Virus record (IMG/VR): IMGVR_UViG_2617270973_000013
Location: 1-7,648 of that record
Strand: one strand, 5' to 3'
DNA length: 7,648 bases
Source of the DNA: a virus
Taxonomy: Duplodnaviria > Heunggongvirae > Uroviricota > Caudoviricetes
Part shown: one piece after another, positions 2,851 to 7,648 of the stretch
Position numbering within the stretch: position 1 is the first letter of the stretch
How the letters are laid out: each line of letters begins with the position of its first letter
The notes under the pieces: generated by a model
What the model was told of the DNA's origin: nothing
The model's database searches: none
The model's input: only the letters and a program-made list of their open reading frames with translations
Position numbers and translations under genes: made by a program

Positions 2851-3895
2851 ATTTCAGCGCCCGACGCTGGCAGAAAATATCAGTATGCTCCGTAACGATT
2901 TATTCGCCAGGCTGGACGTCAGCGACACGCTCCGGCGCATGGATGAAGACGTGCGGGCAAAGGTGTATGCGGCGGCGCTGCATACGGTTTACGGGTACAT
3001 CGATTATCTGGCAATGAATATGCTGCCTGACCTGTGCGATGAGTCCTGGCTGGCGCGACATGCTGCGATGAAACGGTGTCCGCGCAAGGGGGCCACGGCT
3101 GCCAGCGGGTATATGCGCTGGGAAGGTGTCAGCGATGGCCTGAAGGTGACCGCCGGGAGTGTTATTCAGCGCGATGACCTGGTTCAGTACACGGCAACTG
3201 CCGATGCAACCAGCTCCGGTGGTGTCCTGCGCGTGCCGATCGCCTGCTCAAGTGCAGGTGCGGTCGGTAACGCTGACGACGGTACGGCATTAATCCTGGT
3301 CACGCCGGTGAATGGTCTGCCGTCTTCCGGTGTGGCTGACACCCTTACAGGCGGATTTGATACTGAAGAGCTGGAAACGTGGCGCGCCCGCGTCATTGAG
3401 CGGTATTACTGGACGCCTCAGGGCGGGGCTGACGGGGACTATGTCGTCTGGGCTAAAGAAGTGCCCGGCATTACCCGCGCATGGACATACCGTCACTGGA
3501 TGGGAACGGGAACTGTCGGTGTGATGATTGCCAGCAGTGACCTGATTAATCCCATTCCGGAAGAATCAACGGAAACGGCAGCAAGACAACATATCGTGCC
3601 ACTGGCCCCGGTGGCAGGCTCTGATTTGTATGTATTCAGGCCGGTGGCACATACGGTGGATTTTCATATCCGCGTGACGCCGGACACACCAGAAATACGA
3701 GCCGCCATCACCGCGGAGTTGCGTTCGTTTCTTCTGCGTGATGGTTATCCGCAGGGAGAACTGAAGGTATCGCGTATCAGTGAGGCGATTTCCGGTGCGA
3801 ACGGGGAATATAGCCATCAGTTGCTTGCACCGGCAGACAATATCTCCATTGCGAAAAATGAACTGGCGGTTCTGGGGACGATTTCATGGACGTGA
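2837..3895 (+). CDS. Baseplate J-like protein (Mu gp47-like wedge subunit)
   Basis: 352-aa ORF, matching the size and position expected for a Baseplate_J protein between gp46 and gp48. It overlaps the next gene by 10 bp (ATG 3886, stop 3893-3895). Confidence 0.7.
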
Positions 3896-4473: not shown

Positions 4474-5238
4474 ATGCATCGTATAGACACGAAAACCGCG
4501 CAGAAGGATAAGTTCGGCGCGGGTAAGAACGGTTTTACCCGTGGTAACCCCCAGACCGGCACACCTGCCACCGATCTGGATGATGACTACTTTGACATGT
4601 TGCAGGAAGAACTCTGCAGCGTGGTGGAGGCATCCGGTGCCAGCCTGGAGAAGGGGCGGCATGACCAGCTGCTTACCGCGCTTCGTGCGCTGCTGTTAAG
4701 CCGCAAGAATCCGTTTGGTGATATCAAATCGGATGGCACGGTGAAAACGGCTCTCGAAAACCTTGGTTTGGGAGAAGGTGCTCCAGCTATTGGCGTTCCG
4801 TTCTTCTGGCCGTCCGCCGCAATGCCAGATACCGTAATCGAAAGCTGGTCCGGCATGGTGTTTTTGAAGTTCAACGGCGCGAAATTCTCTGCCACTGATT
4901 ACCCTGTGCTGGCGAAAGTGTTTCCTTCGCTGGTATTACCTGAAGCCCGCGGTGATTTCATTCGTATCTGGGATGATGGTCGTGGTGTAGATAGTGGACG
5001 TGGATTACTTAGTACGCAGTCTGACCTGATGAAACAATTTACTTTGCAATACTACGGTCCTTCTGCTGGTACTGGAACAAGAACGGTTTTCGCCCTCCAG
5101 AGTAATGCGAACGGCATATATACGAGTGGTATTAGTCAGAATGATGGTAGTGGCACCGCTGCGGCTTTTAATGTACCAGGCGGCACCGAAACACGCCCAC
5201 GTAACATTGCATTCAACTTTTTAGTAAGGGCTAAATAA
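4474..5238 (+). CDS. Tail fibre protein (constant N-terminus Sc, residues 1-~97, fused to variable C-terminus Sv in the present orientation)
   Basis: 254-aa ORF. The N-terminus has a [16 protein letters not shown] motif resembling Mu S / P2 H N-termini (from memory). The C-terminal part ([10 protein letters not shown]...[15 protein letters not shown]) resembles a phage tail-collar / receptor-binding domain. The crossover site sits in-frame at codons 94-101 (LENLGLGE). Stop TAA 5236-5238 overlaps the tfa ATG (TAATG). Confidence 0.8.
4751..4776. repeat. Left crossover site (Hin/Gin-type, 12-2-12): CTCTCGAAAACC-TT-GGTTTGGGAGAA
   Basis: Both half-sites fit the TTnTCnnAAACC pattern recalled for hix/gix/cix sites. 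A perfect 14-bp inverted copy of 4763-4776 occurs at 6608-6621. The site lies inside the stf coding sequence. Confidence 0.8.
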
Positions 5239-5831
5239 TGAAACCTGTTTTTGATAAAAATGGGCTGGCTACAGTGCCGGGTGATATGCGTTGTTTTTAT
5301 TATGATGCAGTAACGTCTGAATATACTGGCTGGTCTGATGAATATATTAATACTGGTGTAAGTATGCCCGCCTGTTCCACTGGTATTGACCCGGGCGAAT
5401 ACATTCCGGGGAAAGTGGCAGTATTTACGGGTAAGGGATGGAGCCATGAAGAAGACCACCGCAATGAGACTGCTTACTCAATCGAAAATGGCGCAGCTGT
5501 TACAGTGGATTATATCGGTGCCATCAAAGACGGTTATGTCACGCTTTCACCGTTAACGCCATACGATAAATGGGATGGTGAGAAATGGGTGACAGATACT
5601 GAGGCACAGCATAGTGCCGCAGTAGACGCGGCAGAAGCACAGCGCCAGTCGCTGATTGATGCTGCAATGGCTTCCATCAGTCTGATTCAACTGAAATTGC
5701 AGGCCGGGCGGAAGCTGACGCAGGCAGAAACAACCCGACTTAACGCCGTGCTGGATTACATTGACGCGGTGACGGCAACAGATACCAGCACCGCGCCGGA
5801 TATCATCTGGCCTGAACAGCCGGAGGCGTAG
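5238..5831 (+). CDS. Tail fibre assembly chaperone (Tfa / Mu U-like)
   Basis: 197-aa ORF coupled to stf. The C-terminus (LDYIDAVTATDTSTAPDIIWPEQP) carries the conserved tail-fibre-assembly motif and an N-terminal FYYD motif. Confidence 0.8.
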   Translation: MKPVFDKNGLATVPGDMRCFYYDAVTSEYTGWSDEYINTGVSMPACSTGIDPGEYIPGKVAVFTGKGWSHEEDHRNETAYSIENGAAVTVDYIGAIKDGYVTLSPLTPYDKWDGEKWVTDTEAQHSAAVDAAEAQRQSLIDAAMASISLIQLKLQAGRKLTQAETTRLNAVLDYIDAVTATDTSTAPDIIWPEQPEA

Positions 5832-6243
5832 GCCATTCAATATCTGGAGCACTGGAAATATCAACCATTTCCAGTGCGTCCAGATAATCAAGCCATGAAT
5901 TATATTGCGCCAGTTCCTCACCTTTCAGACGACCAATAGCAGCCTTTCCTGGCCACTGCTTACTGTTAATATATTCATTAACTCGATTTATGAGTGCCTG
6001 TTTTTTTCGTTCCGCTTCTGACAGTTGTTCTTCATGAGTTAGCGGCGGTACGTCATCCCATGCAGGATAGCCATCATCACCCGCAACTCTCACCTTCCCT
6101 GGAGGTGGGGACAGGTACTTAATAAATATATCCTCATCAACTTCAACTCCATTATGAGGCCATAACCCAGACTCCTTATACTGACTTTCCAGAGTAAATG
6201 GGTAAAACATATTAGTTTTAGCATCGTAAAGATATTTACTCAT
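5803..6243 (-). CDS. Alternative tail fibre assembly chaperone (Tfa' / U'-like) inside the invertible segment
   Basis: Begins MSKYLYDAKTNMFYPF, a typical Tfa N-terminus, and ends with the conserved LDYLDALEMVDISSAPDIEWPTPP motif. Start ATG at 6243-6241 is preceded by AGGAAG and lies 1 nt after the Sv' stop (TAA at 6247-6245). The 24 extra upstream codons in the ORF track (to 6315) overlap the end of Sv' and are judged not to be the real start. Confidence 0.8.
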   Translation of the reverse strand: MSKYLYDAKTNMFYPFTLESQYKESGLWPHNGVEVDEDIFIKYLSPPPGKVRVAGDDGYPAWDDVPPLTHEEQLSEAERKKQALINRVNEYINSKQWPGKAAIGRLKGEELAQYNSWLDYLDALEMVDISSAPDIEWPTPPAVQAR

Positions 6244-6244
6244 T

Positions 6245-6621
6245 TTATCTTCCTGTAGCAAACCAGCGGCAACCAGCGACAGTTGGAACATTGAAGGATG
6301 GATTTCCTTTATCAAGAGATCCCAGGTTCTCTGCTATGACATTTGAGTTAGTCAATTTATAGAATTGCCATACTGACATTTTCCCTGCCACAGGAGCCTG
6401 GTCATGTTCATTAATAGAAATGACGGCTGTCGGAAATGGGATAGGAAAATTAATCAAAACTTCATTTGTTGTGGCCCCAGTTAGCCCCCATTGTTCAATA
6501 TAACCATCCGGGCTTCGCCTCCATCCCGTCGTTGTATCTCCCCCACACTCCCACGCTGACATATCAGGAATTTGGTTTTGCCCGTTACCCACATCCCGTT
6601 TTGCCGCTTCTCCCAAACCAA
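6245..6621 (-). CDS. Alternative tail fibre C-terminal cassette (Sv'), start-less; expressed only as an in-frame fusion to Sc after inversion
   Basis: - strand ORF with no ATG; the track's initial 'M' is a TTG at 6616-6614. Directly stitching the sequence after inversion at the crossover core gives ...ENLGLGE-AAKRDVGNGQ..., in frame with stf codons 1-98. It is immediately followed by tfa' in the stf-tfa arrangement. Confidence 0.75.
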
Positions 6622-6633
6622 CCTTTCAAATAT
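6608..6633. repeat. Right crossover site: TTCTCCCAAACC-AA-CCTTTCAAATAT (inner half canonical, outer half degenerate)
   Basis: Positions 6608-6621 are the exact reverse complement of 4763-4776. The core AA is the complement of the left core TT, as required for inversion. The site ends 59 bp upstream of the invertase ATG. Confidence 0.8.
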
Positions 6634-6660
6634 TTTTCTGAATCAGGTGATATTTCGCCT

Positions 6661-6687
6661 CTTCTCCTGTTTTTACAACAGGAGAAG
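6661..6687 (+). promoter_or_regulatory. Perfect 10-bp stem / 7-nt loop hairpin (CTTCTCCTGT-ttttaca-ACAGGAGAAG) whose 3' arm contains the invertase Shine-Dalgarno
   Basis: Inverted repeat read directly from the sequence. No U-tract follows on either strand, so it is not a canonical intrinsic terminator. It could equally be a palindromic protein-binding site. Confidence 0.4.
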
Positions 6688-6692
6688 CACTC

Positions 6693-7256
6693 ATGATTTA
6701 CGGGTATGTACGTGTATCAACAAATCATCAGGATACAGAGTTGCAACGTCTTGCACTTGAGTCAGTTGGCTGTGAGCGAATTTATGAAGAATATGCCAGT
6801 GGCAGAACAGCTAATCGCCCTGTGTTAAAGGAATTAATTACGGTGATGAAAAGTGGAGATGAGTTGATTGTCTGGAAGTTAGATCGGATAGGGAGAAATG
6901 TGCTGCATGCGCTATTGATGTTTCAAAATCTGCACGAAAAAGGTGTTAATTTTCGGAGTATTACAGATGGCGTAGACCTGAAAACAGCAAGTGGTCGCTA
7001 TAATTTCCGTAATATTCTTTCTGCTGCGCAGTATGAATCTGATTTGAATAGCGAGCGAACTTTAGCTGGTTTGGCTATTGCCAGATCCAAAGGCCGGATT
7101 GGTGGGCGTAGACCGAAGTTTAGCGACGAGCAGTGGCAACAGATGGGAGCGCTCATAGCGGCAGGGAAATCACGGCGTTATGTTGCACGTATCTATAACG
7201 TTGGGCTATCAACCCTATATAAACGATTTCCTGTTACTGGCATTCAAACGAAATAA
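6693..7256 (+). CDS. Serine recombinase, DNA invertase of the Hin/Gin/Cin/Pin family
   Basis: 187-aa ORF with N-terminal YGYVRVSTNHQDTELQ (catalytic Ser in the YVRVST motif), VWKLDRIGRN, and C-terminal GRIGGRRPK and helix-turn-helix-like region (RRYVARIYNVGLSTLYKR). Strong SD GGAG at 6681-6684, 8 nt before the ATG. It lies directly outside the right crossover site. Confidence 0.9.
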   Translation: MIYGYVRVSTNHQDTELQRLALESVGCERIYEEYASGRTANRPVLKELITVMKSGDELIVWKLDRIGRNVLHALLMFQNLHEKGVNFRSITDGVDLKTASGRYNFRNILSAAQYESDLNSERTLAGLAIARSKGRIGGRRPKFSDEQWQQMGALIAAGKSRRYVARIYNVGLSTLYKRFPVTGIQTK

Positions 7257-7399
7257 TTTAAAAGCAATTTAAAGAGTTATTTGTCTAATGTTGGAAGCCG
7301 CAGCCACGTCGTATGCAAGAACGTGCTGCGGCTGGCTGGCGAACTTTCGATAGTGCGAGTATTGAATGATTTCCAGCCGTTACCGATTTTACGTGTTAA

Positions 7400-7648
7400 T
7401 TAGTGAACAAACCACTCGTCAGCAGATTCCCAGGTATCTTTCAGAGTCTCCTGAACAAAAGTTTTTGCAGAATCCTTATCTGCGGTGCGTGTAACAGAAA
7501 GGCCATCGTTGCTGGTGGCTTTTACGATCACCTCTACATCGTCATAACGTTTACTGATGCGTCGGGTTAATTCTTCCTTTAACGCATCCACAGCACCGGT
7601 TGGCATTTTAGTCATTTTTTCTTTGGCTATGCAGATTTCAATACGCAT
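7400..7648 (-). CDS. DinI-family protein (DNA-damage-inducible protein I-like)
   Basis: 82-aa ORF; the N-terminus MRIEICIAK and C-terminus [17 protein letters not shown] closely resemble E. coli DinI as I recall it. The ATG lies exactly at the window end (7648-7646), so its promoter and any LexA box are outside the window. Confidence 0.7.

Follow-up and report, generated by a model that had tools for sequence, protein, structure and literature searches.

The right crossover site of a tail-fibre inversion switch, at positions 6608–6633 of the 7648-nucleotide stretch of phage DNA analysed here (the window), is strongly supported as a functional pixR equivalent of the Din family. Its outer half is weak and makes up the initial 12 bp of a conserved cassette, which consists of the outer half, a 72–74 nt leader and the invertase gene. 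The explanation that best accounts for the whole, i.e. a functional site, a conserved cassette and a weak promoter that overlaps the site, with translation limited by a hairpin, is held with slightly better than even confidence.

The window belongs to an E. coli prophage integrated at dusA and carries an invertible tail-fibre segment of the e14/Pin type (Din family). Genes for a Mu-like baseplate, a ymfQ-like protein and a tail fibre are present, together with two convergent assembly genes, an inverted fibre C-terminus, a serine recombinase and a dinI-like gene. The closest complete match is the dusA-adjacent prophage of E. coli CM2010-0578/1. The gene layout is that of the e14 P-segment switch, and the main features are:

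4474–4764, plus strand: constant N-terminal part of the tail fibre (Sc), in the open reading frame 4474–5238; it reads into whichever variable arm faces it
4765–6619, unstranded: invertible segment, 1855 bp, with two Pfam Caudo_TAP matches and one Gp53-like_C match
4765–5238, plus strand: Sv arm, within the invertible segment
5238–5831, plus strand: tail-fibre assembly gene, within the invertible segment
5803–6243, minus strand: second assembly gene, within the invertible segment
6245–6619, minus strand: Sv′ arm, within the invertible segment
6693–7256, plus strand: serine DNA invertase, 187 aa, with catalytic Ser9 and a C-terminal HTH

The segment thus carries alternative tail-fibre C-termini and assembly chaperones, as seen from the two Caudo_TAP genes and the Gp53-like_C arm. 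When it is flipped in silico, 4474–4764 joined to the reverse complement of 6245–6619 gives an unbroken open reading frame, with Sc in frame with Sv′. A strong hairpin at 5841–5886 was considered as a general mid-segment insulator and rejected, as it is confined to loci with the same assembly-gene allele.

The invertase shows the Pfam domains Resolvase (E = 4e-36) and HTH_7 (E = 7e-12), and it keeps the VRVST motif with Ser9, the GRIGGRRPK arm and the STLYKRFP helix as in Gin, Pin and Cin. Its best solved relative is Gin (3uj3, E = 4e-56). Amino acid identity is 49–54% to Gin, PinE and Cin (54% to PinE) and 79% to the HK225 invertase.

The two crossover sites are as follows:

4751–4776, unstranded: left crossover site CTCTCGAAAACC/TT/GGTTTGGGAGAA, with the core at 4763–4764; its reverse complement is the published pixL (26/26)
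6608–6633, unstranded: right crossover site, 26 bp, an inverted repeat with the left site; its inner half and core are those of pixR
6608–6619, unstranded: inner half of the right site, TTCTCCCAAACC, present at these positions
6620–6621, unstranded: core AA of the right site, the point at which homology breaks among 92 related loci
6622–6633, unstranded: weak outer half of the right site, CCTTTCAAATAT, with a low score in a position weight matrix (PWM)

Both sites are 26 bp long, inverted with respect to each other, and consist of 12-bp halves around matching 2-bp cores (TT left, AA right), as is typical of the Din family. The inverted repeat 4758–4777/6607–6626 (20 nt, 90%) is the sole long one that joins the fibre gene to the invertase side, and the right site is far above chance. 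Published sequences are TTCTCCCAAACC AA GGTTTTCGAGAG for pixL and TTCTCCCAAACC AA CGTTTATGAAAA for pixR (Table 3, PMC3241671). Inverted repeat, identity with pixL and with the inner half and core of pixR, and asymmetry in PWM score together bear out the proposal of the earlier note that this is the invertase-proximal crossover site and that its outer half is weak; all the sequences that the note placed within 6608–6633 are present there.

The strength of half-sites was scored with a PWM built from 28 distinct inner halves of related loci, which were themselves scored leave-one-out, with a median of 11.4 bits (n = 28). Outer halves compare as follows:

window left outer half: 11.8 bits
e14 right outer half: 8.9 bits
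hixR outer half: 1.3 bits
window right outer half, read as ATATTTGAAAGG: 0.6 bits
commonest outer half of the clade, TTATAAAAAAGG: −0.4 bits

All outer halves of the clade are weak, ranging from −5.8 to 7.3 bits. The asymmetry is therefore real, similar to that of hixR and a clade-wide trait, not the decay of one copy. The earlier note had ascribed the same asymmetry to both hixR and gixR. This is correct for hixR, whose outer half, TTTTCCTTTTGG, is poor, but not for gixR, since gixL and gixR are the same (Table 3, PMC3241671); a check of the Mu sequence shows the two as an identical 26-mer.

The term ‘degenerate’, which had been applied to the outer half, is apt with respect to its weakness but somewhat too strong: AAA at positions 6–4 and GG at positions 3–2 are retained, and it is the distal TTCTC/GAGAA part that is gone. 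The A at position 6 is invariant in 28/28 inner halves. The Gin catalytic domain has a strict need for A/T at positions 6–4 and tolerates CC, CG, GG and TG at positions 3–2 (PMC3616721), so that the right outer half still fits the catalytic-domain contacts. Nix sites of D. nodosus likewise have AA followed by CC (PMC3241671). The window sites have four halves, three of which match the consensus for dix sites, TTC---AAAC- / -GTTT---GAA; the right outer half agrees at 4/7 positions. This mismatch does not exclude membership of the Din family, as hixR, mix and nix sites also fail the consensus and yet work (PMC3241671).

Evidence that the segment inverts in nature comes from sequenced genomes. 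The predicted flipped junction (the reverse complement of 4765–4900 joined to 6620–6760) occurs as one unbroken sequence in 21 complete E. coli genomes, with identity reaching 97.5%, and the junction as found in the window is present in four. Strain RM9088 has the same dusA prophage with colinear flanks, and here the Sv arm and its assembly gene are reversed and adjoin the invertase; the flipped part is seen as matched stretches 4763–5011 and 5206–5865.

The 92 related loci were gathered from E. coli genomes, other Enterobacterales and IMG/VR. On the left side of the AA core the loci have 28 distinct inner halves, whose flanks are unrelated, and on its right side only nine outer halves and 22 leaders; homology among the loci ends exactly at the core. 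This break, together with the natural flipped isomer, indicates that the right site is functional. A break at the core is also what one would predict were segments reshuffled, by site-specific exchange at this point, next to an invertase cassette that stays the same. The distance from core to ATG is fixed at 72–74 nt, except in one metagenomic variant, where it is 63 nt and approximately one helical turn has been deleted. The leader itself is a shuffled module. It is 100% identical between the window and phi80, while the adjoining open reading frames are only 57–77% identical, and a metagenomic recombinant has its breakpoint within the hairpin that holds the Shine–Dalgarno sequence.

The fixed length may be accounted for by the position of an enhancer within the invertase gene:

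6711–6778, unstranded: probable Fis-dependent recombinational enhancer, assigned by homology; it aligns with nt 19–86 of P7 cin, the annotated enhancer

These nucleotides (19–86 of the invertase gene) show unusually high conservation at the DNA level among the window, cin, gin and pinE, and they lie ∼90–100 bp from the right core. In Salmonella, hixL is ∼100 bp from the proximal Fis site (PMC3798978).

Comparison with known systems places the window closest in layout to Pin of e14 in E. coli K-12. Gene order is the same (ymfQ-like, Sc, Sv, assembly, inverted assembly, inverted Sv′, invertase), the left site equals pixL, and the inner half and AA core of the right site equal those of pixR. The inverted-repeat core TTGGTTTGGGAGAAGG, which the window shares, has been reported for the 1797-bp P segment of e14 (PMC12529663). 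The right outer halves differ: that of e14, CGTTTATGAAAA, is identical to CCTTTCAAATAT at 6/12 positions and scores 8.9 bits against 0.6 bits. The e14 leader is unrelated to the window leader and has no significant hairpin at the Shine–Dalgarno sequence, and the backbone of the window, a dusA-integrated element with a Mu-like baseplate, is unlike that of e14.

The hixR site of Salmonella Hin, like the window site, has one canonical half and one poor half, the latter with a core-adjacent GG, and the distance from gene-proximal site to enhancer (∼100 bp) is like that to the probable enhancer of the window. Unlike the window invertase gene, hin lies inside its own invertible segment, beside hixL, and the weak half of hixR is on the side far from hin. 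In addition, hixR has T's in place of the A-tract, whereas the window site keeps AAA at positions 6–4, and Hin switches a flagellin promoter, whereas the window system switches tail-fibre ends. In the G segment of Mu, the invertase gene gin is not part of the segment but follows the right site closely on its downstream side, with the same strand orientation, at a similar distance from site to start and with a Mu-like baseplate upstream, all as in the window. Mu differs in having gixL = gixR with no asymmetry, a GA core, longer inverted repeats and no hairpin that sequesters the Shine–Dalgarno sequence.

In phi80 (pinL) and mEp237, the right site and leader are 100% identical to 6608–6692 of the window, and HK225 has the commonest sister leader. 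Past the ATG, the phi80 invertase reading frame is ∼57–77% identical to that of the window, with one identical block at 6993–7052. Upstream of the right site, phi80 has only pseudogene fragments of a tail fibre. Records of phi80, mEp237, HK225, Mu and P7 have no annotated promoter for the invertase gene, and the leaders of pinQ and pinR of K-12, considered as a way to published transcription starts, are unrelated to the window leader.

The leader contains two inverted repeats:

6645–6660, plus strand: small conserved palindrome or hairpin AGGTGA-N4-TCGCCT, consensus GGYGA-N4-TCGCC, predicted to form a stem
6661–6687, plus strand: 11-bp hairpin CTTCTCCTGTT-TTTAC-AACAGGAGAAG, a perfect inverted repeat with arms at 6661–6671 and 6677–6687

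The second of these is the strongest regulatory feature near the right site. Its 3′ arm holds the Shine–Dalgarno sequence AGGAG (6680–6684), 6 nt before the ATG, and its predicted stability is −15.3 kcal/mol (z = −6.2). Across the clade it hardly varies, apart from a single compensatory C-G/U-A change at the base of the stem; the phi80 record annotates it as IR3, and neither e14 pinE nor Mu gin has it. The simplest reading is that it would throttle translation of the invertase. A role as intrinsic terminator was rejected, as no T-run follows on either strand and a scan gave no terminators. In the smaller element, 95% of alignment cells are paired. One of its pairs varies as C-G (14), U.G (5) and U-A (1), with single G.U pairs elsewhere, and such variants suggest pairing at the RNA level. 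Covariation was rejected as proof of the leader hairpins, since there are only one to two independent compensatory events, which are suggestive at most.

Three other assignments in this region were also considered. A LexA box, prompted by the neighbouring dinI-like gene, was rejected because the palindrome is CTGT-N7-ACAG and not N8. A coupled upstream open reading frame at 6466–6696 (ATGA overlap) was rejected because this frame has stops in all other leader classes examined except one (L101). The leader shows no match to a known RNA family in Rfam; the sole match in the window is sub-threshold, at 7275–7330.

From the end of the right site to the ATG there are only 59 nt, 27 of which are in the hairpin. 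Thus, any promoter in the leader must set its −35 hexamer in or against the right site. There are two candidates:

6625–6654, plus strand: candidate sigma-70 promoter P-b, with −35 TTCAAA at 6625–6630, an 18-nt spacer and −10 GATATT at 6649–6654; predicted start ∼6661
6608–6636, plus strand: alternative candidate P-a, with −35 TTCTCC at 6608–6613, a 17-nt spacer and −10 TATTTT at 6631–6636; predicted start ∼6643

P-b is the promoter that the earlier note had proposed to overlap the right site. Its hexamers are at the positions given, and it falls in the best-conserved promoter-like column of the leader; against it are a consensus match of 8/12, a score that by itself is not above chance, and its loss in one group of leaders. 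The match is under the 9/12 threshold at which a consensus scan lists sites, although A2 and T6 of the −10 are present. Promoter scores are from a simple log-odds model whose hexamer frequencies approximate published compilations of E. coli promoters. By this model P-b reaches 7.6 bits, a value equalled or exceeded at 38 positions in the window, i.e. ∼2.5 per kb per strand, so that ∼0.2 sites of this grade are expected in an 85-nt interval.

Conservation adds to this. Over 12 diverged leader classes, the column of the P-b −10 has the top mean promoter score upstream of the ATG (7.1 bits), and the only rival column with a similar mean extends over the start codon, where it would be of no use to the invertase gene. 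Ten of the 12 classes have TTTATA, TTGAAA or TTGATA as −35 inside the outer half, with a GAYNYT −10 at 16–19 nt, mostly 17–18. The same fraction (10/12) scores at least 5.5 bits at this column, a figure confounded by the half-site and the palindrome, which occupy the same positions. A natural variant, C6627G, changes the −35 to TTGAAA and raises the score to 9.9 bits. In class C leaders, P-b is lost, with GATCTC or GTTCTC at its −10 and 2.8 bits. The −35 could resemble a promoter element simply because the half-site is rich in A/T. The −10 is enclosed by the 6645–6660 element, which may be paired as RNA, and this is mildly against P-b: if the stem is transcribed, the start is upstream of 6645 and not at ∼6661. 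A local promoter overlapping the right site, either P-a or P-b, is put at close to an even chance; that the hexamers of P-b specifically drive the invertase gene is a more tentative assignment.

A different reading is that there is no promoter at or near the site, and that the invertase is transcribed from antisense promoters in the AT-rich segment or by read-through. In that case an extended 5′ leader would take in both hairpins and the right site, the weakness of the outer half would reflect relaxed constraint on the non-coding side, where a strong half and a cooperative dimer suffice, and expression of the invertase might depend on the orientation of the segment. The top plus-strand promoter score in the window is indeed at 6336–6365 (ATGACA-18-TAGAAT, 12.0 bits, 10/12), and several further sites with at least 7.5 bits inside the segment face the invertase; comparable ones face outward from the other arm. 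The C-G, U.G and U-A variants of the 6645–6660 element fit a transcribed hairpin and therefore an upstream start, and the chance-level score of P-b points the same way. However, AT-rich foreign DNA abounds in matches of this kind (2.7 ± 1.8 in shuffled versions of the region), and the same leader is found behind many unrelated upstream sequences, including those of phi80-type phages with mere pseudogene debris. A promoter borne by the cassette is a simpler way to keep the invertase expressed in these settings, and the conservation of the P-b column also argues against transcription from upstream, which on balance is unlikely.

It is improbable that the crossover site is itself the promoter, in the form of P-a. 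Its −35, TTCTCC, is at the distal end of the inner half and, as part of the inverted repeat, would be present in both orientations; with a start at ∼6643, both hairpins would be transcribed and a bound dimer would cover the promoter. P-a scores marginally higher than P-b in the window (8.0 bits), its start just upstream of the 6645–6660 hairpin agrees with pairing at the RNA level, and Mu has a similar layout, with TTTCCT-16-GATAAT across gixR (7.6 bits). Yet its −35 matches at only 3/6 positions, and P-a was rejected as a conserved promoter, since other leader classes score only 2.5–5.2 bits, their spacer being 15 nt and their −10 TATAAC or TAAAAC, without a T at the end; e14 scores 3.5 bits.

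Very improbable is the reading that the downstream palindromes are operators at the DNA level and that autoregulation occurs there instead of at the true site, with the 25-bp TTCTCC-N13-GGAGAA (6662–6686) as an invertase-bound pseudo-crossover site over the ribosome-binding region and GGYGA-N4-TCGCC as the operator of some other regulator: the real half-site does have TTCTCC as its distal hexamer, the copies of this hexamer are 13 bp apart against 14 bp in the true site, and there is a 13/15 direct repeat (6599–6613 with 6653–6667), but the centre of 6662–6686 has neither an AAACC/GGTTT core nor the invariant A at position 6, TTCTCC simply complements the Shine–Dalgarno GGAGAA, and the G.U-type variation favours RNA pairing.

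With the functional site, conserved cassette and weak overlapping promoter taken together, the following picture emerges. It is strongly supported that an invertase dimer binds 6608–6633, brings it together with the left site at 4751–4776, cuts at the AA/TT core and flips 4765–6619, presumably at the Fis-bound enhancer. As the outer half has no distal contacts of the GAGAA type, binding there would probably depend on cooperativity with the strong inner half. The likeliest source of invertase transcripts is a weak promoter overlapping the right site, with TTCAAA-18-GATATT as the best-conserved candidate.

The earlier note had also suggested that invertase bound at the site could regulate its own transcription. 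The geometry makes this plausible, as the −35 of P-b (6625–6630) is inside the site (6608–6633). By occluding the promoter or acting as a roadblock, bound invertase would reduce transcription of its own gene. Were transcription to come from upstream, the right site would lie in the transcribed path, and a bound dimer could still cut expression of its own gene. Any such repression would be lessened if the outer half is poorly bound. The hairpin that buries the Shine–Dalgarno sequence would throttle translation further, and promoter occlusion and hairpin together would hold the level of invertase, and hence the rate of flipping, very low. An overlap of promoter and crossover site may have come up in work on Gin or Hin from the 1980s, a point given no weight here. 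The literature searched gave no reports of a promoter or of autoregulation for hin, gin, cin or pin.

Tail-fibre inversion switches set the host range of phages, and the rarity of flipping depends on a low output of invertase. Such switches have been suggested to aid prophage-encoded defence as well (PMC12529663). A bolder and rather doubtful proposal is that the MIYGY... invertase clade of enterobacterial prophages represents a self-limiting cassette, in which the weak outer half doubles as the −35 element and autorepression depends on occupancy. If this is true, the transcript begins at or just before the 11-bp hairpin that buries the Shine–Dalgarno sequence, and the degeneracy of the half-site is a selected compromise between binding of RNA polymerase and of recombinase, which sets the rate of flipping. 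The edge of the cassette at the core dinucleotide would allow it to be grafted site-specifically onto any tail-fibre segment. A promoter in the weak half-site, combined with a hairpin that limits translation, would constitute a compact and transplantable self-dosing recombinase, and this could be of some use in understanding phase-variation rates and in the design of synthetic inversion switches. At present, the main gain is a better annotation of a known system, namely the crossover point and the clade-wide asymmetry; in addition, the leader, annotated in phi80 only as ‘IR3’, is identified as a conserved regulatory module.

Two other elements offer analogies. The Tn3/gamma-delta resolvase, which is likewise a small serine recombinase and belongs to the same superfamily, binds sites in res within which its own promoter lies, and so shuts that promoter down (PMC7157771). 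The earlier note proposes this mechanism for the window. The likeness to res is one of analogy and not of membership: res has three binding sites and mapped promoters, whereas the window has a single crossover site and a candidate promoter. The second analogy is the fold-back inhibition of the IS10 transposase, where the leader pairs with the ribosome-binding site and poor translation keeps a DNA-rearranging enzyme scarce. In IS10, the inhibitory arm is found only in read-through transcripts from outside; in the window, by contrast, a transcript from the predicted local start (∼6661) would still include the whole hairpin.

The leader of the invertase gene (6693-7256, plus strand) folds into a hairpin that buries the Shine-Dalgarno sequence. 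The secondary structures and sequence motifs considered here are, by position in the window:

5841-5886: very strong hairpin in the middle of the invertible segment (-28.1 kcal/mol, z = -8.0)
6336-6365, plus strand: promoter-like match ATGACA-18-TAGAAT (10/12; 12.0 bits)
6599-6613 and 6653-6667: direct repeat matching at 13/15 positions, TTTTGCCGCTTCTCC and TTTCGCCTCTTCTCC
6661-6687: Shine-Dalgarno hairpin of the invertase leader, perfect 11 bp stem (-15.3 kcal/mol, z = -6.2)
7306-7341: GC-rich stem GCCGCAGC...GCTGCGGC (minus-strand fold, z = -3.75)

The Shine-Dalgarno hairpin is almost unchanged among about 90 related loci, and its sole annotation is 'IR3' in phi80. The hairpin is absent from both e14 pinE and Mu gin, and it is probably a clade-specific translational throttle of the invertase.

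The right crossover site and leader (6608-6692) are 100% identical to phi80 positions 3049-3133. Directly 3′ of the ATG, the phi80 and window invertase reading frames share just 57-77% identity, and there is only a single identical block (window 6993-7052). The leader is exchanged independently of the invertase reading frame. The metagenomic locus L147 is a recombinant, whose breakpoint falls within the Shine-Dalgarno hairpin.

Metagenomic relatives also display variant leaders. In L148 (contig OGVH01001382.1) the distance from the crossover core to the ATG is 63 nt vs the usual 72-74 nt, a shortening of about one helical turn. This leader has neither the GGYGA element nor the -10 sequence (GATATT, 6649-6654) proposed in the earlier note as part of an invertase promoter, and it retains the Shine-Dalgarno hairpin. 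Such a length fits with constraints on helical phasing between the crossover site and the enhancer. A second metagenomic locus, L136, has an unrelated leader, which lacks the hairpin, 5′ of a related MIYG-type invertase. At least some related invertase loci clearly have their own leader-borne promoter, because the L136 leader contains a near-consensus extended -10, TGCTATAAT, about 25 nt 5′ of the ATG.

The lead-in to the Shine-Dalgarno hairpin resembles the lead-in to the inner half-site, and these two sequences form the direct repeat. The repeat may be the remnant of a duplicated crossover site or fibre gene start in an ancestor.

Within the invertible segment, the promoter-like match has the top plus-strand score of the entire window. 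It is antisense relative to Sv′ and directed toward the invertase. If the promoter is real, segment orientation would govern invertase transcription; the match may equally be a chance occurrence in AT-rich DNA. The central hairpin lies within the 3′-terminal part of the minus-strand assembly gene, directly beyond the stop codon of the plus-strand assembly gene, and is restricted to loci with the same assembly-gene allele (the window, L022 and L089). No T-run is found 3′ of it. The hairpin could insulate the invertase against late-operon read-through.

The GC-rich stem sits between two convergent genes: the invertase gene, past whose stop codon it lies, and the minus-strand dinI-like gene (7400-7648), whose start is the final base of the window. 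There is no clear T-run after the stem, which may mark a transcript end common to both genes.

With respect to annotation, a homologue of the tail-fibre gene (4474-5238) in locus L003 (positions 6075-6821; RefSeq NZ_CP087564.1) is labelled 'integrase'. The label comes from an automatic pipeline, is found in several RefSeq genomes, and looks like a misannotation.
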